Virus record (IMG/VR): IMGVR_UViG_2778261162_000005
Source of the DNA: a virus
Lineage: Duplodnaviria; Heunggongvirae; Uroviricota; Caudoviricetes
DNA length: 36,774 bases
Direction: 5' to 3' (one strand)
Notes under the pieces: model-generated
Database searches by the model: none
Told to the model about the DNA's origin: nothing
Seen by the model: only the letters and a program-made list of their open reading frames with translations
Translations under genes and position numbers: made by a program
Part shown: positions 700-19,539 of the stretch, in pieces
Layout of the letters: every line of letters begins with the position of its first letter
Numbering within the stretch: the stretch's first letter is position 1

Positions 700-834
700 A
701 TACTAAACATTAGTTAAATCATGGCTTTTGCCATTTTTATACTTTTTTTACACCCCGCCCGCAGATTTTTGCGAAATCTTTGCAGCCAGAATTCTACCCT
801 TCCGGTATCACTTTTAGGCCACTGGAGGTGCACT
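700..834 (+). promoter_or_regulatory. kdpFABC promoter region with putative KdpE operator
   Basis: AT-rich region directly upstream of kdpF containing T-rich direct repeats CATTTTTATACTTTTTTTTACACCCCGCCCG (about 733-765), which matches my recollection of the KdpE binding site. Confidence 0.45.
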
Positions 835-924
835 GTGAGTGCAGGCGTGATAACCGGCGTATTGCTGGTGTTTTTATTACTGGGTTATCTGGTTTATGCC
901 CTGATCAATGCGGAGGCGTTCTGA
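835..924 (+). CDS. kdpF: Potassium-transporting ATPase subunit F
   Basis: GTG start at 835; 29-aa hydrophobic peptide (M)[28 protein letters not shown]; stop overlaps kdpA start (TGATG). Confidence 0.8.
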
Positions 925-2132
925 TGGCTGCGCAAGGGTTCTTACTGATCGCCACGTTTTTACTGGTGTTAATGGTGCTGGCGCGTCCTTTAGGCAGCGG
1001 GCTGGCGCGGCTGATTAATGACATTCCTCTTCCCGGTACAACGGGCGTTGAGCGCGTACTTTTTCGCGCACTTGGCGTCTCTGACCGTGAGATGAACTGG
1101 AAGCAATATCTTTGTGCCATTCTCGGCCTGAACATGCTGGGGCTGGCGGTGCTGTTTTTTATGTTGCTCGGTCAGCACTATCTGCCGCTTAATCCACAGC
1201 AGTTGCCGGGGCTGTCGTGGGATCTGGCGCTGAATACCGCCGTCAGCTTTGTCACGAATACCAACTGGCAATCTTACAGCGGTGAAACCACGTTGAGCTA
1301 TTTCAGCCAGATGGCTGGCTTAACGGTGCAAAACTTTCTTTCTGCCGCCAGCGGGATTGCGGTGATTTTTGCCCTCATCCGTGCGTTTACCCGCCAGAGC
1401 ATGAGCACACTCGGGAATGCCTGGGTCGATCTGCTACGCATCACGTTATGGGTGCTCGTCCCTGTGGCGTTGTTGATCGCACTGTTTTTTATTCAACAAG
1501 GTGCGCTGCAAAACTTTCAGCCTTATCAGGCTGTGAATACCGTTGAAGGAGCGCAACAGCTGTTACCCATGGGGCCTGTAGCTTCTCAGGAAGCGATCAA
1601 GATGCTCGGTACTAACGGCGGTGGCTTCTTTAATGCCAACTCGTCGCATCCGTTTGAAAACCCAACCGCACTGACCAACTTCGTGCAGATGCTGGCGATC
1701 TTCTTGATCCCAACGGCGCTGTGCTTTGCCTTTGGTGAAGTGACGGGCGATCGCCGCCAGGGGCGCATGTTGCTGTGGGCGATGTCAGTGATTTTTGTCA
1801 TCTGCGTAGGCGTGGTGATGTGGGCAGAAGTTCAGGGTAATCCTCATCTGCTGGCGCTCGGCGCAGACAGCAGCATCAATATGGAAGGTAAAGAGAGCCG
1901 TTTCGGCGTGCTGGTCAGTAGCCTGTTTGCGGTCGTGACTACGGCGGCTTCCTGTGGCGCGGTGATTGCGATGCATGATTCGTTTACCGCTCTCGGTGGC
2001 ATGGTGCCGATGTGGCTGATGCAAATTGGTGAAGTGGTGTTCGGCGGTGTCGGTTCTGGTCTTTACGGCATGATGCTGTTTGTCCTGCTGGCGGTGTTTA
2101 TTGCCGGGCTGATGATTGGTCGTACACCGTGA
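924..2132 (+). pseudogene. kdpA: kdpA (potassium-transporting ATPase subunit A) truncated by prophage insertion; 402 codons retained
   Basis: ATG at 924 overlapping kdpF stop; multi-pass membrane protein [16 protein letters not shown]...MIGRTP then TGA at 2130. Intact KdpA is about 557 aa (recalled) and continues EYLGKK after GRTP; here non-kdp sequence follows. Confidence 0.85.
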
Positions 2133-2325: not shown

Positions 2326-2487
2326 ATGACTACTCAAAACAATAAGCATGATAGCCTGGATTACTCAGAAAAGCCCAAAAGCAAGCACATCGTGACGTTC
2401 GAGCGCGATTCCGGTAGAAAAGGAGAATCGTCTTCCTCTGCCAATAAAACCACTATGCCGGCAGCCCCTGCCCCAGGGAAAAAATAA
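2326..2487 (+). CDS. Hypothetical small hydrophilic protein (53 aa)
   Basis: ATG at 2326 with AAGGA 7 nt upstream; MTTQNNKHDSLDYSEKPKSKHIVTFERDSGRKGESSSSANKTTMPAAPAPGKK; below the ORF-track length cutoff; low-complexity, so coding status uncertain. Confidence 0.25.
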   Translation: MTTQNNKHDSLDYSEKPKSKHIVTFERDSGRKGESSSSANKTTMPAAPAPGKK

Positions 2488-2490
2488 ACA

Positions 2491-3123
2491 TCATTCATCG
2501 TTCGTTGCACGAACGCGCCTGATCTCCACTCTGGCAATCTGATCTGCTGGAATATAGGTTGCCAGAGCTCCCCAGTACTTATCAACCACGCCTTTATACT
2601 CTTCCCATTCGTTACTGCCTGAAGGGCTGCTGTGCGTGACGTAAAGAACCATATCGCCTTTATTCCCCAGGGTAAACGGACCGTTAGGCCACTCTTCAAA
2701 GTTCCCTGGCAGCCGTGACATCATACCGGAACCATCGCGAAGAATCACTCTGACCTCGGTAACGCTGAAGCCTGTTTGATCAAACATTGCCTGCCATGCT
2801 GAGCTGGTATCGTCAGACCATGAAATATCATTATTCCACAGTAATCTGTACATCCATTTGCGACCGTACCTGCGCCACCACGCACCGCATGTAACGGCAC
2901 ACAGAAGTGCTGGTGGTGTTGCCAGCCAGGCATTCAGACCTGCCCACATAACAGCCTGGTAAGCCATCATTGCTGTCAGGCCAAAAATCAGCGAAGAAAA
3001 AGTCACCTCAATGGGCTTGTGGTGATCCTTCAGTCCCACATTCGCAATAAAATACCCAATATAGCCACTGGTCAGGGTCACCAGTGTTGCCCATGGCAGA
3101 TTTAACAACGAAACGTCAAACAT
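2491..3123 (-). CDS. Membrane protein with about 3 N-terminal TM helices and a soluble C-terminal domain; unknown function
   Basis: Start taken at internal ATG 3123 (MFDVSLLNLPWATL...) because GGAGA precedes it; hydrophobic N-terminal about 100 aa, soluble C-terminal about 110 aa; lies downstream of the early-operon terminator. Confidence 0.6.
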   Translation of the reverse strand: MFDVSLLNLPWATLVTLTSGYIGYFIANVGLKDHHKPIEVTFSSLIFGLTAMMAYQAVMWAGLNAWLATPPALLCAVTCGAWWRRYGRKWMYRLLWNNDISWSDDTSSAWQAMFDQTGFSVTEVRVILRDGSGMMSRLPGNFEEWPNGPFTLGNKGDMVLYVTHSSPSGSNEWEEYKGVVDKYWGALATYIPADQIARVEIRRVRATNDE

Positions 3124-13653: not shown

Positions 13654-13869
13654 TTATCCGGGGTGATTTTCTGACCTTATCTGGTCCAGGGCGTAAGTGA
13701 GCCCTTCTGCAAAAACAGAAGTATCAAACTGCTTTTGTATTTCCTGAAAATGAACAGTGGCACGACAGATACTCAGTTCTCCGCGATGTAACCGGATAAT
13801 ATCTTCCAGAACATTGTTCACTGCTTCAGCACGGCGCTGATGTTCTGTTAACGTTAATCGGGGATTCAT
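13654..13869 (-). CDS. Hypothetical small protein (71 aa)
   Basis: ATG 13869 with AAGGAG 7 nt upstream; charged, helix-prone; its start overlaps the P2 start on the opposite strand. Confidence 0.35.
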   Translation of the reverse strand: MNPRLTLTEHQRRAEAVNNVLEDIIRLHRGELSICRATVHFQEIQKQFDTSVFAEGLTYALDQIRSENHPG

Positions 13870-14272
13870 GATGCACTCCTTAAATGATGATTTTTATGTA
13901 CTCACCGGCAAAATATTCTGCCGATTACTGAACACGCATCCGGTACCTCAGGTTTTGATTTATTCTGGTTTTTTCGATATCCCGGACCAGGTTGATCACG
14001 ACCAGAAAAAGTGCCGGTATTTTATTGATACGCTGATATGGCTTCGGGATAACAGCTATATTCGTTACTCTCAGTTGCTGGCTGTGGGAGCGGCTGATGT
14101 CGTCCTCACGGAAAAAACGCTCTGTCTGCTCAATGCCATGCCGACCTTTCTGCAGCCCCGGCCCGTGCCATTTAAAGAGTCGCTTCTGGATGCAGTAAAA
14201 ACCGGTGAAAATGCAGTCATCGCTGAATGCGTATCCCGGATTATGCGTTACGTGTTTAATGAACGTAAGTGA
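13868..14272 (+). CDS. Hypothetical protein P2 (134 aa), paralog of 13024-13404; unknown family
   Basis: N-termini of P1 and P2 align without gaps from the first Met (F9, G14, I16, F17), supporting this start. Confidence 0.55.
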   Translation: MMHSLNDDFYVLTGKIFCRLLNTHPVPQVLIYSGFFDIPDQVDHDQKKCRYFIDTLIWLRDNSYIRYSQLLAVGAADVVLTEKTLCLLNAMPTFLQPRPVPFKESLLDAVKTGENAVIAECVSRIMRYVFNERK

Positions 14273-14991
14273 GGTTTATCCGTTGTCTGCATAATCCCGA
14301 TAGCCAGTGCGAGGGGAAGCAATTCCGGGGAAACTTTTTCAAACAGCGATTCCCATTCTCCTCTCGCCATCACTCTGTCCAGCCCGCCCTCCAGCTGCAT
14401 TTCAGCAATCTTCCTGATTTCCCGGAACAACGCCGCTTTGATCTCTTCATGCTCAGCTTTATTTTCCGGTGTCAGAATGTATTCGTCGAAGAACCGGGGA
14501 GGCTGGTTAACGGGGATTGTGTTCACCGGGATGTGTTCCTGCTTCCCGTACTTCGGGGCCGAAAAACATTCTGTTGGCTGACCAGCGAGTTTACGTAACT
14601 CCTTCATGAGCAGCTCCTGATCGTAAACTGTCATCAGTGCCGCAATGGTGGCATGCAGTGCATCGGGCAGTATCCAGGGTTGCCGGCCCGTGGGGCATAT
14701 AACATCCAGCAGCTCATTCGTCCGACAGATACGCTCCTCGCCGTATGACAACAGGCCCTGTCCCGTGTATTCCTCCAGCCTGATCACTGTGCCAGCCCGT
14801 GGCTTCTGCCAGGTCGTCAGATCATCGCCACTCATACGGCGCTCATTCTCCACGTCAGCAGCATCGACAATGACGCTGTTTCCGAGTTCCTGTTTCACCA
14901 TCTCTTCTATCCGCGCCAGTACGTAACTTTTACCGCTGCCCACAGGACCGGACACAGTGACAGTGATGACCGGATTCAGTGTGTGCGTCAT
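14248..14991 (-). CDS. P-loop NTPase / kinase-like protein of unknown type
   Basis: 247 aa; Walker A GPVGSGKS at residues 15-22, Walker B-like VIVDAAD; C-terminal about 170 aa without recognisable motif. Confidence 0.6.
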   Translation of the reverse strand: MTHTLNPVITVTVSGPVGSGKSYVLARIEEMVKQELGNSVIVDAADVENERRMSGDDLTTWQKPRAGTVIRLEEYTGQGLLSYGEERICRTNELLDVICPTGRQPWILPDALHATIAALMTVYDQELLMKELRKLAGQPTECFSAPKYGKQEHIPVNTIPVNQPPRFFDEYILTPENKAEHEEIKAALFREIRKIAEMQLEGGLDRVMARGEWESLFEKVSPELLPLALAIGIMQTTDKPHLRSLNT

Positions 14992-15121
14992 ATCGTATTC
15001 TCCTCTGTGAATAATTCATCGTTTATCCTGCACACCCCGTATCCCCGGCTCTCTTAACGCGCTTTAAAATCCTTCGCGCCCTGTATTTGTGATGCTGTCT
15101 CCACCAGACAAGGAGACACAC

Positions 15122-15472
15122 ATGAAAAGCCTGAAAAAATTCATTCCCCCTGTTAAAAAACCTCGCCTCAGCGGCTGGCTGCTGACCTCAGTGCTGTTGC
15201 TGGGCACCATCGCTCTGGTCTCGCCACAGCAGTTGCCTGTTGTGATCTACAAGCTGGCACTCATCACGCTGGCAGCAGTGCTGGGTTACTGGCTTGACCG
15301 TTCGCTCTTCCCCAAAGCCCGTCCCGGTCAGTACCTGAAACATGACGACAGGCTGATGGCTGAAGGGCGTTTCCCTGTGCAGACCGGCCTTCACCTTGTG
15401 TTTGCTGCTGCGTTAATCCGCCGTGCACTGATTGTTGCAGCGATCTGTCTGGCTGTGGCAACAGGACTGTGA
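15122..15472 (+). CDS. Putative holin (3 predicted TM segments)
   Basis: 116 aa, GGAGA RBS; three hydrophobic helices; first gene of the lysis cassette. Confidence 0.5.
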   Translation: MKSLKKFIPPVKKPRLSGWLLTSVLLLGTIALVSPQQLPVVIYKLALITLAAVLGYWLDRSLFPKARPGQYLKHDDRLMAEGRFPVQTGLHLVFAAALIRRALIVAAICLAVATGL

Positions 15473-15474
15473 CC

Positions 15475-16200
15475 ATGAACTGGCCTCAAATCACCCTCAT
15501 TATTCTGTTCGCCTTTGGTCTGGGCGTAACCGCCATCAGACACGGAGAACCACGTAACGATAAATACAGCTTCTGGTGGCAACTTACTGGCAACCTGGTG
15601 ATTGTCTGGCTGCTCTGGTGTGGCGGCTTCTTCAGTCAGGCCCGCGCAGCGCAGCCTCCGCAGGCTGCGCTGCAGTATCGCGATGATGTGATCCGTAATG
15701 CCCGGCTTGAATGGGGACTGTCTGCGCCGGTGGCTGATTTCGCTGCGCAACTGCATCAGGAAAGCGGCTGGCGACCTGATGCGATCTCGCCGGCTGGCGC
15801 TCAGGGACTGGCGCAGTTTATGCCTGCCACTGCCGACTGGATAAGCCAGTTGATGCCGGCGCTGAGCAGTCGAGAGCCGTTTAATCCGGCATGGGCTATC
15901 CGGGCGCTGGTCAGTTATGACCGCTGGCTGTGGCAGCGCGTCAGCGCCGCCAACGACTGCGAGCGTATGGCCATGACACTGTCGGGCTATAACGGTGGTC
16001 TGGGCTGGGTACAGCGGGACAGGCAACTTGCATCACAGAAAGGGCTGGACCGTACCCGCTGGTTCGGACATGTCGCCACGGTGAATGCCGGACGCAATGC
16101 TGCCAGCTGGCGGGAGAACCGTCATTATCCCCAGCGCATCCTGTTCACGCTGGCCCCGCGTTATCTCTCATGGGGAGGGGCAAGCTGTGTGGGTACGTAA
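15475..16200 (+). CDS. Lytic transglycosylase endolysin (SLT domain) with two N-terminal TM segments
   Basis: ESGWRPDAISPAGAQGLAQFMP is the SLT catalytic signature; about 55 aa of two hydrophobic helices precede it. Confidence 0.7.
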   Translation: MNWPQITLIILFAFGLGVTAIRHGEPRNDKYSFWWQLTGNLVIVWLLWCGGFFSQARAAQPPQAALQYRDDVIRNARLEWGLSAPVADFAAQLHQESGWRPDAISPAGAQGLAQFMPATADWISQLMPALSSREPFNPAWAIRALVSYDRWLWQRVSAANDCERMAMTLSGYNGGLGWVQRDRQLASQKGLDRTRWFGHVATVNAGRNAASWRENRHYPQRILFTLAPRYLSWGGASCVGT

Positions 16201-16840
16201 GTTACGGTCGCTGCCGTGGCGGGTCATTATGCTGGCCATTCTCCTGAACACCTTCCTGCTGGCGATCTGGTGGCTGGGATACAGCACAGGCCACGACCGG
16301 GCCTCCGCTGACGGTCAGGCGGCGCTCAGCCGCCTGCAGGCGGATTTTGACGGATACCGGGCAGAACAGGCCCGGCGTGAGGTGGCGGCGTTGCGCGCAT
16401 GGTCTGAGCGTTATCAGGAGCAGGTAGCCGCCGGGCAACGGGCTGAAGCTGGTTATCTTGAGCAGATTGCTCAACTGGAGGACCAGAACAAACAACTACA
16501 GGGGCAAATTAACGATGTCACACAGCGCTGGATTGATGAAAAAGGTAAGAGCCATCCCATTGAGTGCGTGTTTACTCGCGGTTTCGTGCGCCAGTACAAC
16601 GCCGCACTCGGATACGACAACGCATCCGTCGACACCGGTCATTCAGACTCAGTTGCCGCCGCTGGCACCGGCACTGGCGCAGCGACCGGGCAACCTGAAA
16701 CCGCTGACGCCCGGTTACGCAATTCGGGTGTCTCCCAGCTTGACGTCCTTGCCAACATCATCGACAACGCAGGGCAATGTCGTCGCTGGCGAAACCAGAT
16801 AAACGCGCTACTGGATGAACGGGAAGGATTACAGAAATGA
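16187..16840 (+). CDS. i-spanin (Rz-like)
   Basis: GTG 16187 with GGGGAGGGG upstream; basic N-terminus, one TM (IMLAILLNTFLLAIWWLGY), then coiled-coil-like periplasmic domain. Confidence 0.6.
   Translation: MWVRKLRSLPWRVIMLAILLNTFLLAIWWLGYSTGHDRASADGQAALSRLQADFDGYRAEQARREVAALRAWSERYQEQVAAGQRAEAGYLEQIAQLEDQNKQLQGQINDVTQRWIDEKGKSHPIECVFTRGFVRQYNAALGYDNASVDTGHSDSVAAAGTGTGAATGQPETADARLRNSGVSQLDVLANIIDNAGQCRRWRNQINALLDEREGLQK
16536..16802 (+). CDS. o-spanin (Rz1-like lipoprotein) embedded in +1 frame within Rz
   Basis: MKKVRAIPLSACLLAVSC... signal with lipobox-like Cys, then proline-rich body; fully nested inside the Rz-like gene. Confidence 0.5.
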   Translation: MKKVRAIPLSACLLAVSCASTTPHSDTTTHPSTPVIQTQLPPLAPALAQRPGNLKPLTPGYAIRVSPSLTSLPTSSTTQGNVVAGETR

Positions 16841-17163
16841 CACTGCAGGTTGAATTCTGGACGGTGGTGAGTTTTTTGCTCACCTTCATGGGGTTTGTGG
16901 GAGGGCTCGCCAAATGGTTGTTCAGTAAAACAGAAGAACGCCAGGCGGCACGATTCGCCTCCCTTGAGCAGGCCCTGCAACAGTCCGCCTCCAACTGGGG
17001 CGAACTGGAAAAAGAATTTATGCGATTTAAAGCGGATTTACCGCTGAATTATGTCCGTCGCGAGGATTATATCCGTGGCCAGACAGTCATCGAGGCCAAA
17101 CTGGACGCGCTCTACAACAAACTGGAAGTGGTACAGCAGTACCGCAATACCGGAGGTCAATAA
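16837..17163 (+). CDS. Hypothetical membrane-anchored protein (108 aa)
   Basis: GGAAGG RBS, ATGA overlap with Rz stop; one N-terminal TM. Confidence 0.45.
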   Translation: MTLQVEFWTVVSFLLTFMGFVGGLAKWLFSKTEERQAARFASLEQALQQSASNWGELEKEFMRFKADLPLNYVRREDYIRGQTVIEAKLDALYNKLEVVQQYRNTGGQ

Positions 17164-17474
17164 TGGTCGATATTACCCGGGTACGCCGTGAATCCCTGCG
17201 CTGGAGTCTGCTGGTTGCCCTGAACAAAACCCGCCCTTATACCGCCAGCGAGACGCTGCTGCTGGAAGTGTCCCGCGCCATCTACCCGGACACCACGCAA
17301 CTGGAGCTGCGCCGTGAGCTTGATTACCTGGCAGATCGCAAGATGGTGGAACTGGAGAAGAGGCCTTCCGGTGACTGGTTTGCCGATCTGAGTCGCCTTG
17401 GTGTGGATATTGTGGAATACACCGTGGAATGCGGCCCCGGTATTGCCCGCCCGGAAAAATACTGGAGTGAGTGA
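17163..17474 (+). CDS. Hypothetical protein (103 aa)
   Basis: GGAGG RBS; precedes the terminase genes. Confidence 0.45.
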   Translation: MVDITRVRRESLRWSLLVALNKTRPYTASETLLLEVSRAIYPDTTQLELRRELDYLADRKMVELEKRPSGDWFADLSRLGVDIVEYTVECGPGIARPEKYWSE

Positions 17475-17476
17475 TT

Positions 17477-18019
17477 ATGGGACGTCGCAGCAGCATTGAT
17501 TCTCTGCCGAAGGAGGTCCGTCGCTGGCTTGAGCGGGCACTGACGGAGAATAATTTCACCGGCTATGCAGAGCTTGAAAGTCTGTTGAAGGAAAAGGGGT
17601 ACAGCATCACCCGCTCTTCCCTGCAGCGGTTTGGCTACAAAATGGAGCAGCAACTGGCCCGGGTGCGGGCGGCAACCGAGGCAGCGCGTCTGCTTGCCCG
17701 GGAGGCCGGAGACGATCCTGATGACCGTTCAGCCGGGCTGATAACCCTCGTCCAGACCGAAATGACGGATATCCTGATGCGCCTGCAGGAGTCGCGGGAA
17801 AACGACGATCCCTTCGCCCGGGCAAAACTGCTGGCAACGGCTTCAAAAAATATCGCCACACTGACCCGCGCCTCGGTCAACCTCAAGCGCTATCAGGCAG
17901 AAGTCAGAGAGAGGGTTGAACGTGCTGCCGCTGCCGCCGAGAAAATTGCCCGTAAGGGCGGGCTCTCTGCGGAAGCCGTACAGGCACTGCGCCGGGAAAT
18001 TCTGGGGGTGGTATCATGA
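17477..18019 (+). CDS. Terminase small subunit, Mu gp27-like (DUF3486-like)
   Basis: ATG 17477 after upstream stop; position directly 5' of the large terminase; family assignment recalled. Confidence 0.55.
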   Translation: MGRRSSIDSLPKEVRRWLERALTENNFTGYAELESLLKEKGYSITRSSLQRFGYKMEQQLARVRAATEAARLLAREAGDDPDDRSAGLITLVQTEMTDILMRLQESRENDDPFARAKLLATASKNIATLTRASVNLKRYQAEVRERVERAAAAAEKIARKGGLSAEAVQALRREILGVVS

Positions 18020-19539
18020 CGGAGCTGCCGCCGCACATTCCTGACACCGCGAGTTATAAGGCCCCTCCCGTTCTGTTGCCCTACCAGCAGCGCTGGGTGG
18101 CAGATGCCTCTCCGCTTAAGGTGATAGAAAAGAGCCGTCGTACCGGTATTACATGGGCTGAGGCATCCGATAACGTACTGACCGCCGCCTCTTCTGCGCC
18201 AGCAGGCGGGATGAATGTGTATTACATCGCTTATAACCAGGACATGACCGTCGAATACATTCAGGCGTGTGCGATGTGGGCACGGGCATTCAACTATGCG
18301 GCCAGTGAAATTGAAGAAGGATTCTGGGAAGAGGACGACGACGACAAACACATCAGGACTTACACCATCAAATTTCCTGACTCCGGCTTTCGTATTGTTG
18401 CGCTCTCCAGCCGCCCGTCTAACCTGCGTGGCCGTCAGGGTATTATTGTTATCGACGAAGCGGCGTTCCATGAGCAACTGGACGAACTGCTGAAAGCGGC
18501 GCTGGCGATGCTTATCTGGGGGGGAAAGGTACGCGTTATCTCCACCCATGACGGTGACGACAATCCGTTCAATACGCTTATCGGGGATATCCGTGCCGGA
18601 CGTCAGGGAGGCAGCGTACATCGCATCACTTTCCGGGAAGCCGTATCTGAGGGGCTGTTCCGGCGCGTTTGTCTGCGCACCGGGAAGGAATGGTCGGAGG
18701 CATCCGAGCAGGCCTGGATGGCGTCAGTGTACAAATTCTACGGTGCCGGTGCATCCGAAGAGCTTGACTGTATTCCGGCCAACGGTGGCGGTGCCTGGCT
18801 GTCCCGAGCCCTGATAGAGTCCCGCATGTCCGCTGATACGCCGGTATTGCGTCTGACCTGCAAGGAAGGTTATGAGCTGCTGTCTGATGAGGTTCGCTTC
18901 CGCGAGACGCAGGACTGGCTTGATGAGCATCTGAAACCCTTGCTGGAGGCGCTCCCCGCTGGTGCCCGCTCTTTTCTGGGGCGCGACTTTGGCCGTAGCG
19001 GTGATTTGTCGGTGGACTATCCCCTGCTGCAGGAGAAGAACCTGATACGACGCGTGCCATTCGTACTGGAGTTGCGTAACGTGCCGTTCAGGCAGCAGGA
19101 GCAAATCACCTGGTATCTGATGGATGGCCTGCCCGGTCTGCTGGGTGCTGCGTTTGATGCCCGTGGTAATGGTGCCTATCTGGCTGAATACGCCATGCAG
19201 CGCTACGGCTCCAGCCGGGTTCAGCAGGTGATGCCAACCGAAGGCTGGTACCGGGAGCATATGCCTCCGGTCAAAGCTGCACTGGAAGACGGTAACCTGG
19301 TGGACTTACCAAAGGATGAAGACACACTGGATGACCTGCGGGCCGTTCAGGTGGTGAACGGTGTCCCCCGCGTGCCGGAGCAACGCTCAAAAGCAAAGGC
19401 TGATGGTGGTAAACGCCACGGGGATTCAGCCATCGCACTGGCGCTGGCGTATTTCGCCAGCCGTGAAATTAACAAAGGGCCGGTGAAGGCAAGCTCACGC
19501 CGTCGTCGTCAGGCGGCCCGTATGCTGGAGGGATTCTGA
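18016..19539 (+). CDS. Terminase large subunit, Mu gp28-like
   Basis: 507 aa; ATPase region with acidic IVIDEAAF Walker B-like motif; start overlaps upstream stop. Confidence 0.75.
   Translation: MTELPPHIPDTASYKAPPVLLPYQQRWVADASPLKVIEKSRRTGITWAEASDNVLTAASSAPAGGMNVYYIAYNQDMTVEYIQACAMWARAFNYAASEIEEGFWEEDDDDKHIRTYTIKFPDSGFRIVALSSRPSNLRGRQGIIVIDEAAFHEQLDELLKAALAMLIWGGKVRVISTHDGDDNPFNTLIGDIRAGRQGGSVHRITFREAVSEGLFRRVCLRTGKEWSEASEQAWMASVYKFYGAGASEELDCIPANGGGAWLSRALIESRMSADTPVLRLTCKEGYELLSDEVRFRETQDWLDEHLKPLLEALPAGARSFLGRDFGRSGDLSVDYPLLQEKNLIRRVPFVLELRNVPFRQQEQITWYLMDGLPGLLGAAFDARGNGAYLAEYAMQRYGSSRVQQVMPTEGWYREHMPPVKAALEDGNLVDLPKDEDTLDDLRAVQVVNGVPRVPEQRSKAKADGGKRHGDSAIALALAYFASREINKGPVKASSRRRRQAARMLEGF

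Follow-up and report, generated by a model that had tools for sequence, protein, structure and literature searches.

The prototype of the lysis cassette studied here is that of Burkholderia phage BcepMu, which was reportedly described by Summer et al. in 2004 (J Mol Biol 340:49). In the annotation of the BcepMu genome (NC_005882), gp21 is a holin, gp22 an endolysin (putative soluble lytic transglycosylase), gp23 an Rz and gp24 an "Rz1, out of frame, embedded proline-rich protein"; they are followed by gp25, a putative inner-membrane protein, by gp26, and by gp27, the small terminase (TerS). Phage Mu has no holin, and its gp25, a DUF2730 protein called "releasin", is required to free a muramidase of the signal-anchor-release (SAR) type (Chamblee et al. 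2022, PMC9239132). In Pseudomonas phages JBD25, H71, Fc02 and their relatives, a DUF2730 protein is paired with an SLT endolysin, regarded as SAR-type (PMC9239132). We analysed a DNA stretch of 36,774 nucleotides (nt; IMG/VR record IMGVR_UViG_2778261162_000005; hereafter, the window), a transposable E. coli prophage of Mu type that belongs to the BcepMu group (Bcepmuvirus). Positions 15122-16840 are almost certainly the lysis cassette of this BcepMu-like element. The novelty lies in the N-terminus of its endolysin; elsewhere the BcepMu prototype is followed, and the cassette itself adds nothing new.

The cassette consists of four (+)-strand genes, co-oriented and overlapping or tightly packed, i.e., a holin, an SLT endolysin, an Rz and an Rz1 embedded in the +1 frame of Rz. 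An earlier inspection of the letters (the sequence-only reading) had proposed this content for the same interval, and every feature was recovered there by family matches and by synteny with BcepMu. Indeed, the four genes and the next one match gp21-gp25 in order, with 53%, 61% (catalytic domain), 30%, 39% and 53% identity, and are by these alignments their syntenic orthologues. Gene order and overlaps are the same, from the PF13272 holin to the gp27 small terminase, so that the arrangement is of a known kind, ordinary and widespread. By contrast, gp22 (203 amino acids, aa) begins with a plain 20-residue signal peptide (MRVLIAFVVALLGAAAPVAA/QVP), where the window endolysin has a two-helix module of 58 residues. 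A homologous holin, SLT and Rz with embedded Rz1 are also found in Pseudomonas phage B3 (ORF24-ORF28) and in the JBD25/H71/Fc02 phages (Beetrevirus), a group whose SLT enzymes share 59-60% catalytic-domain identity with that of the window. The late operon of Mu has the same layout (endolysin, embedded spanins, small membrane-helix protein, gp26, gp27) and, as in Mu, a hydrophobic signal at the N-terminus, rather than a hole made by the holin, would take the window endolysin across the membrane. On the other hand, Mu has no holin and pairs a DUF2730 releasin with a muramidase whose single SAR helix is weakly hydrophobic, whereas the window has a holin and an SLT enzyme with two strongly hydrophobic helices, and no DUF2730 protein was detected.

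The endolysin gene (15475..16200, + strand) encodes a precursor of 241 aa (27.1 kDa), in which the two-helix membrane module precedes an SLT lytic transglycosylase. It starts at ATG 15475; an alternative GTG at 15469 has a Shine-Dalgarno at poor spacing. The SLT signature seen in the sequence-only reading corresponds to a genuine catalytic domain (15751..16041, +; residues 93-189), recognised by PF01464 (E 1e-14, 54.6 bits for a cut-off of 21.3), and the protein also matches phrog_669 (E 1.2e-68). Its residue E96 (nt 15760-15762), within the HQES motif, is matched by phmmer (1sly/1qsa) to E478, the catalytic Glu of E. coli Slt70, and is invariant in 39-41 homologues, among which S97 and Y172-N173-G174-G175 are invariant or nearly so. 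The profile match, the catalytic Glu in an E-S motif and the conserved GLAQFMP and GYNGG motifs are those of the SLT/GH23 family. The 61% identity with BcepMu gp22 extends over residues 65-234, and homologues of around 240 aa form more than 100 clusters in Enterobacterales. Production of a soluble SLT from an internal start was considered and rejected: the first in-frame ATG does not occur before residue 116 and no GTG is preceded by a Shine-Dalgarno.

The N-terminal module (residues 1-58; 15475..15648, +) was delimited by its phrog_5479 match, by hydropathy and by alignment to free-standing proteins. It comprises an uncharged N-tail (MNWPQ), helix 1 (residues 4-21), a basic loop (RHGEPRNDKYS), helix 2 (33-53), which ends in the conserved motif LLWCGGFF, and a c-region (SQARA). 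The two hydrophobic helices already noticed ahead of the SLT domain in this open reading frame (ORF) are therefore real: the AlphaFold model places helices at 3-24 and 31-49, and hydropathy agrees with 4-21 and 33-53. On the Wimley-White octanol scale, the best 19-mers reach -9.5 kcal/mol for helix 1 and -14.4 kcal/mol for helix 2, as compared with +5.1 for the SAR domain of Mu gp22.

This module has many free-standing relatives. Residues 1-54 match phrog_5479, a family of free-standing 53-aa proteins (E 6.6e-14), and a phmmer search with residues 1-58 retrieved 489 representative clusters, nearly all of 53-62 aa. Proteins of the phrog_5479 type are marked by an N-terminal W-P-Q, a K-H-G-x-P between the helices and a G-G-F-F that closes helix 2, and the module conforms to this pattern. 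In an alignment with JBD25 gp0025, Mica gp63, BcepB1A gp72 and FoX5 gp66, residues P4, Q5, G24, G50, G51 and F52 are invariant. On these similarities, we assign the module to a large uncharacterised family of phage membrane proteins of around 55 aa; no Pfam family covers such two-helix proteins. Free-standing copies ending in GGFFG-stop are found in Burkholderia phages Mica and BcepB1A, in the Xanthomonas FoX, M29 and Murka phages and in a Rhizobium phage. These free-standing relatives adjoin genes for DnaB, a DNA methylase, a RecA-dependent nuclease, Rep-O, a RecU-like protein and DnaN, away from lysis genes. A lysis context was initially considered for the free module of Xanthomonas phage FoX5, as the upstream gp64 has an "endolysin" PHROG match, but gp64 matches a dATP/dGTP pyrophosphohydrolase PHROG as well and also resembles the gene upstream of BcepB1A gp72; it was dropped as lysis evidence. 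Metagenomic proteins also contain tandem duplications of the module (103-123 aa, four predicted helices; e.g., P0244, P0246, P0248 and P0257), and one protein of 277 aa (P0285) has two module copies, a third helix and a coiled-coil tail.

Most of the 120 best homologues of the endolysin are Enterobacterales proteins of around 240 aa with the W-P-Q tail, helix 1, basic loop and helix 2, whose end is nearly invariant (LLWCGGFFSQA-x-A|A-[QE]-P-P). The other N-termini are a classical one-helix signal (215 aa, Pectobacterium/Brenneria), a collapsed single helix (207-211 aa) and an unrelated hairpin. In E. coli prophages, unrelated sequence freely takes the place of the central part, between the conserved ends MNWPQIT and LLWCGGFFSQA. 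The DNA alignment of 15484-15633 with positions 2073-2250 of Escherichia phage PhiKM revealed a small mosaic joint within the coding region; a frameshift origin of the divergent PhiKM N-terminus was discarded, as this alignment shows instead a mosaic replacement between conserved ends.

The comparison with the Pseudomonas phages points to a gene fusion. In JBD25, the holin (98 aa) is followed by a separate 52-aa two-helix ORF (MGAPQIIWIVLAAVVLVTSYACDGLTNVISFKQRVFDVIAMTALVWWGGFFG-stop) and by an SLT protein of 209 aa with its own signal (MKRLLTLGLLGLLSACQPAFA|TDRIP). This separate ORF is present in at least 48 records of B3-like Pseudomonas phages of the JBD25 type, with 92-100% identity, and its identity with the N-terminus of B3 ORF25 is 45%. 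In B3, the two-helix module is fused in frame to an SLT domain nearly identical to that of JBD25. At the DNA level, B3 corresponds to JBD25 minus 53 nt, and what is lost in this gap is the stop codon together with the n-region and h-region of the signal peptide. Behind helix 2, B3 still has an A-x-A motif (AKA|DE), in the place of AFA|TD in JBD25. Because the module is a separate gene in JBD25-type phages and was fused in B3 by this 53-nt deletion, the endolysin N-terminus is by sequence a gene fusion, the window sharing the fused layout of B3 ORF25. The sequence-only reading had suggested a fusion with a small holin or antiholin; the fusion is upheld by the JBD25 and B3 genes, but on present evidence its partner cannot be called a holin or antiholin, the free relatives lying mostly in replication modules. 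In BcepMu and in a Brenneria prophage, the holin is directly followed by a signal-peptide SLT, without any two-helix gene. By sequence, there are thus three natural architectures: the SLT enzyme has a plain signal peptide, has a signal peptide and a separate two-helix gene beside it, or is fused to the two helices. In the literature consulted, which did not include Summer et al. 2004, we found no description of the two-helix gene, of the endolysin fusion or of the conserved cleavage motif. Besides its separate two-helix gene, the JBD25 type differs from the window by an extra small gene between SLT and Rz. Moreover, the signal of the JBD25 SLT (2408-3037), MKRLLTLGLLGLLSAC-QPAFA, contains a canonical lipobox (LSAC), and this enzyme, called a SAR endolysin in the literature, might be a lipoprotein instead, or be cut behind AFA.

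What follows helix 2 suggests how the fused enzyme may be exported. A signal peptidase I site is predicted at A56-R57-A58/A59 (15640..15651, +), from the (-3,-1) pattern found in 101 distinct homologue N-termini. Position -3 is A in 88 of them (S in 7, V in 4 and Q in 2), position -1 is A in 99 (S in the 2 others), and position +1 is A in 101/101, while position -2 is hypervariable and takes nine residues, R, H, N and D among them. This pattern fits the von Heijne (-3,-1) rule, and an h-region and a c-region are present as in secreted endolysins. The A-x-A/A site is kept behind all the kinds of N-termini, i.e., the GGFF hairpin, the different hairpin, the collapsed single helix and the classical signal peptide; in BcepMu gp22 and in the 215-aa Brenneria/Pectobacterium orthologues, it comes after a one-helix signal peptide. 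Helix 2 may therefore be an internal cleavable signal peptide, a possibility absent from the sequence-only reading. Here, the candidate signal does not lie at the extreme N-terminus with a basic n-region: it is helix 2, preceded by helix 1, with the inter-helix loop as "n-region". In 76 distinct hairpin N-termini, the net charge is around 0 for the N-tail and around +1.3 for the inter-helix stretch. Because of these charges and of the positive-inside rule, the loop would be cytoplasmic and the N-tail and SLT domain periplasmic (N-out/loop-in/C-out). A periplasmic SLT domain could reach its substrate and would thus be in the location that the enzyme needs.

Our best reading is that the endolysin is exported by Sec and then cleaved by signal peptidase I, and we favour cleavage because the (-3,-1) pattern, with its hypervariable position -2, persists behind every type of N-terminus. 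The SLT endolysin would not be held in the cytoplasm; rather, its two-helix module would insert into the inner membrane through Sec/YidC, with the N-terminus out, the loop in and the C-terminus out, which would put the catalytic domain in the periplasm. Helix 2 would act as an internal signal sequence, and the host signal peptidase I would most likely cut after A56-R57-A58. The cut would release a soluble periplasmic transglycosylase of 183 aa (20.4 kDa), leaving a 58-aa hairpin peptide (6.7 kDa) in the membrane. Meanwhile, the PF13272 holin would build up in the inner membrane, and its triggering would collapse the membrane potential and license the pre-exported enzyme to degrade murein. The Rz/Rz1 spanin complex would then fuse the inner and outer membranes and finish the disruption of the envelope. 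For signal-peptide endolysins such as Lys44 of Oenococcus phage fOg44, the holin is presumably needed only to dissipate the membrane potential, and here too it would be needed only for depolarisation. The likeness to Lys44, as outlined in PMC2628397, lies in a Sec-exported endolysin with a cleavable A-x-A site, the window site being a predicted one. The window differs in that its signal is internal, after a first helix and a cytoplasmic loop, in that its host is Gram-negative, and in that cleavage is predicted from sequence.

Several points weigh against this scheme, and we regard the whole pathway, cleavage included, as evenly poised between right and wrong. The topology and the cleavage site come from rules applied by hand, and the AlphaFold2 model of the endolysin is of low confidence (mean predicted local distance difference test score, pLDDT, of 58), too poor for a fold search. 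The holin assignment rests on a family name, and the Pfam name itself says "putative". The conservation of A-A-Q-P-P could instead belong to the mature domain. A freely secreted transglycosylase also poses the question of how premature lysis is avoided. Helix 2, with around 21 residues, is longer than typical cleavable h-regions and closer to a signal anchor, which makes a permanently tethered enzyme the main rival to cleavage. An uncleaved two-helix anchor would keep the SLT domain acting, or restrained, at the outer face of the inner membrane, and depolarisation by the holin would activate it without release. The high hydrophobicity of both helices (far from the SAR domain of Mu gp22), the signal-anchor length of helix 2 and the almost invariant LLWCGGFF, which suggests a lasting role for this helix, all speak for such a tether. 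However, only around 10 residues separate helix 2 from the conserved domain, giving a short reach to murein, and the BcepMu and Brenneria orthologues, with their short cleavable-looking signal peptides, keep the same A-x-A/AQPP junction. Moreover, in work on P1 Lyz, SAR endolysins locked to a normal transmembrane helix were reportedly inactive. Permanent tethering is in our view a real possibility, if on the unlikely side. Chamblee et al. 2022 (PMC9239132) class the related SLT endolysins of Pseudomonas Mu-like siphophages as SAR and not as cleaved enzymes, which counts against cleavage and in favour of an N-terminal region that would exit the bilayer upon holin depolarisation, freeing and activating the enzyme; the Gly, Asn, Thr, Cys and Ser residues of helix 2 point the same way. 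Yet SAR domains are single weakly hydrophobic helices rich in Gly/Ala/Ser/Thr, whereas the window protein has two helices, both far more hydrophobic than the Mu gp22 domain, and a loop with five charged residues that would have to cross or leave the membrane; nor is a DUF2730 releasin detectable in the cassette. SAR release is therefore most improbable, and the SAR-like tethering put forward in the sequence-only reading is not retained.

The role of the module itself raises a further question, compatible with either cleavage or tethering. It could be a lysis regulator (holin partner, antiholin or pinholin-like), the fusion fixing a 1:1 stoichiometry with the enzyme. The separate gene sits exactly between holin and endolysin in 48 records of B3-like Pseudomonas phages, some depositors label it "holin" or "phage lysis protein", and the W-P-Q, K-H-G-x-P and G-G-F-F motifs of the family are strongly conserved. 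Against this stand the free relatives of Burkholderia, Xanthomonas and Rhizobium phages and prophages, which sit in replication or recombination modules, off the lysis genes; the cassette for lysis in phage Mica lies around 1.6 kb further downstream of the module, past an annotated terminator. The BcepMu and Brenneria cassettes show that this type of lysis can dispense with the module, and its middle is replaced without apparent constraint in E. coli prophages. We consider a regulatory role as clearly doubtful. In a related scenario, a "polyprotein", a deletion of the 53-nt type would have fused a gene for a 55-aa membrane protein to that of a secreted endolysin while keeping the signal peptidase site; LepB would restore both products, and the 58-aa peptide would have a separate function, as a lysis-timing factor. 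We see this scenario as unlikely, a little less so than the regulatory one. Coming back to the favoured pathway, Sec export followed by cleavage, its other actors are the holin and the spanins.

The putative holin (116 aa; 15122..15472, +), the orthologue of BcepMu gp21, starts at ATG 15122, with a Shine-Dalgarno AAGGAGA 5 nt upstream. It matches PF13272 Holin_2-3 over residues 16-116 and profile positions 1-106 of 106 (E 1.9e-40, 137.8 bits for a cut-off of 27), and phrog_1528 "holin" over residues 1-116 of 116 (E 7.6e-54). Hydropathy predicts three hydrophobic segments, around residues 17-35, 39-58 and 99-116. As expected for a small membrane protein encoded beside the endolysin, its stop at 15472 lies 2 nt before the endolysin ATG. 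Identity reaches 53% with BcepMu gp21 and 42% with the JBD25 holin. A dual-start holin was rejected: the in-frame upstream codons GTG 15089 and ATG 15092 have no Shine-Dalgarno.

Rz, an inner-membrane spanin (i-spanin) of 217 aa (16187..16840, +), matches phrog_1403 "Rz-like spanin" over its full length (E 5.2e-88). Its start GTG 16187, which the sequence-only reading had rightly placed over the endolysin stop, has an GGGGAGGGG Shine-Dalgarno 6 nt upstream and creates an overlap of 14 nt; start and Shine-Dalgarno are conserved in Klebsiella phage KP12 and in PhiKM. The start chosen by PGAP/RefSeq, ATG 16229, is not conserved, a Leu being found there in KP12. The protein has the features of an i-spanin, i.e., a basic N-tail (VWVRKLRSLPWR), a transmembrane helix at around residues 12-32 and a long helical periplasmic domain with a conserved CVFTRGFVR. 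It shares 30% identity with BcepMu gp23 (E 4e-10) and does not match Pfam PF03245 (lambda Rz). In the identical sequence of NZ_CP068394, RefSeq/PGAP begins Rz at ATG 16229 and names it "hypothetical protein", with no Rz1 coding sequence; the KP12 and PhiKM records call Rz a "putative lipoprotein".

The Rz1-type lipoprotein precursor, an outer-membrane spanin (o-spanin), is encoded wholly inside Rz in the +1 frame (16536..16802, +; alternative start 16515). It begins with a signal and lipobox, MKKVRAIPLSACLLAVS/C-A (LAVS-C), with Cys18 at nt 16587-16589, contains 14% proline and carries a conserved LTPGY; these are o-spanin features, the lipobox having Ala at -3 and not the usual Leu/Val/Ile. 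The Ala at +2 predicts sorting to the outer membrane. No Pfam, PHROG or NCBIfam model matches Rz1. Nevertheless, a lipobox ORF is found at the same place and in the same frame in BcepMu, vB_E274 and B3, and Rz1 is also conserved in KP12 and PhiKM. Its lipobox aligns with those of BcepMu gp24 (LSAC) and B3 (AAGC), and BLASTP detects BcepMu gp24 (1e-5, 39% identity). Moreover, third positions of Rz diverge between the window and KP12 in 47/116 codons outside the overlap and in 12/89 inside it (Fisher p = 2e-5). This suppressed divergence, together with the lipobox ORFs at the same position and the gp24 match, shows that the embedded Rz1 ORF is under selection, and the proline-rich lipoprotein seen in this frame by the sequence-only reading is confirmed. 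The length of the Rz1 ORF was discarded as evidence, since 648/5000 synonymous shuffles (13%) gave an equal or longer ORF, which is non-significant. As in lambda Rz/Rz1, an inner-membrane protein of type II, helical in its periplasmic domain, is combined with a proline-rich outer-membrane lipoprotein nested in the +1 frame. The window proteins differ from the lambda ones by the lack of PF03245 similarity, by their greater length (217 aa; around 70 aa for mature Rz1) and by a mature Rz1 without Cys for an intermolecular disulfide. Indeed, mature Rz1 (16587-16802) has no Cys beyond the lipidated one, unlike BcepMu gp24 (MVCPRP) and B3 Rz1 (APVCPP), in which a second, periplasmic Cys is present. 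As Rz keeps its Cys in CVFTRGFVR, any covalent spanin linkage would therefore be on the Rz side.

The cassette probably reaches one gene further, to 17163. This probable fifth gene (16837..17163, +; phrog_462) encodes 108 aa, and its ATG overlaps the Rz stop (ATGA). The protein has an N-terminal transmembrane helix, a cytoplasmic helical domain and the invariant motif YVRREDYIRGQTVIEAKLDA. With 53% identity to BcepMu gp25 and an hhalign match to B3 ORF28 (1.3e-35), it is by homology the orthologue of both, in the slot held by the DUF2730 releasin in Mu and JBD25. Its architecture is also that of releasins, i.e., an N-terminal helix and a cytoplasmic helical domain in around 100 aa, encoded no more than five genes after the endolysin of a Mu-like phage. 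However, identity with the DUF2730 releasin was rejected, BLASTP, Pfam (E 10) and hhalign being negative, and we keep the protein as a positional analogue. PF10805 matched neither it nor BcepMu gp25 nor B3 ORF28 at E 10, none of 28 homologues of the window protein was matched in a profile scan (0/28), and hhalign gave a probability of 0.6% against Mu gp25 and 1.7% against the JBD25 protein, a true PF10805 member occupying the gp25 slot. Contrary to the Pfam result, UniRef names two 59-60% identical homologues "DUF2730". Its position and architecture suggest a possible lysis role.

We found no sigma-70 promoter in a scan of 14200-18100 and no terminator inside the cassette. Since the genes are packed or overlapping and no such internal signal separates them, they are most likely transcribed as a single unit with the downstream packaging genes. 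Directly downstream lies a small terminase gene of the Mu gp27 type (PF11985, E 8e-51), and the upstream side encodes a Mu Gam homologue, an rve-type transposase, an AAA+ MuB-like protein and a D12 methylase; such flanking genes are in keeping with a Mu-like element. Just upstream of the cassette, 13868-14272 (+, as the cassette) encodes a 134-aa phrog_2266 protein and 14248-14991 (-, divergent from the cassette) a 247-aa protein with a weak P-loop/AAA signature (phrog_3787, E 2e-164); both are conserved and have no assigned function, and the two genes overlap convergently by 25 nt (14248-14272). Further upstream, the ORF 780-2132 (+) matches the KdpA profile over positions 2-394 of 548. Because it stops abruptly at 2132, the prophage appears to be inserted within host kdpA, with its left end just past this position (about 2133-2200).

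Four complete E. coli chromosomes, such as that of strain M-17 (NZ_CP068394), contain the region 15000-17500 with 100% identity, and it is covered to at least 80% in 633/5426 complete E. coli genomes. The closest deposited phages are PhiKM (91%, classified as Bcepmuvirus), KP12 (87.5%) and Phi06_2974 B. The cassette is carried by 638 of the 5426 complete E. coli genomes, about 1 in 8, and the RefSeq copies of this very common prophage have annotation gaps, with Rz1 missing and Rz truncated and "hypothetical". Beyond annotation, these elements provide a natural series of endolysin export-signal swaps, with viable phages for each form, i.e., plain in BcepMu, separate in JBD25 and fused in B3. 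They also link a large unnamed family of phage membrane proteins of around 55 aa to a lysis context in which its function could be examined. If cleavage is true, the endolysin would be a rare bacterial case of an internal signal peptide yielding two products from one ORF, and if the released peptide does time lysis, this would be the first function for a family of at least 489 clusters.

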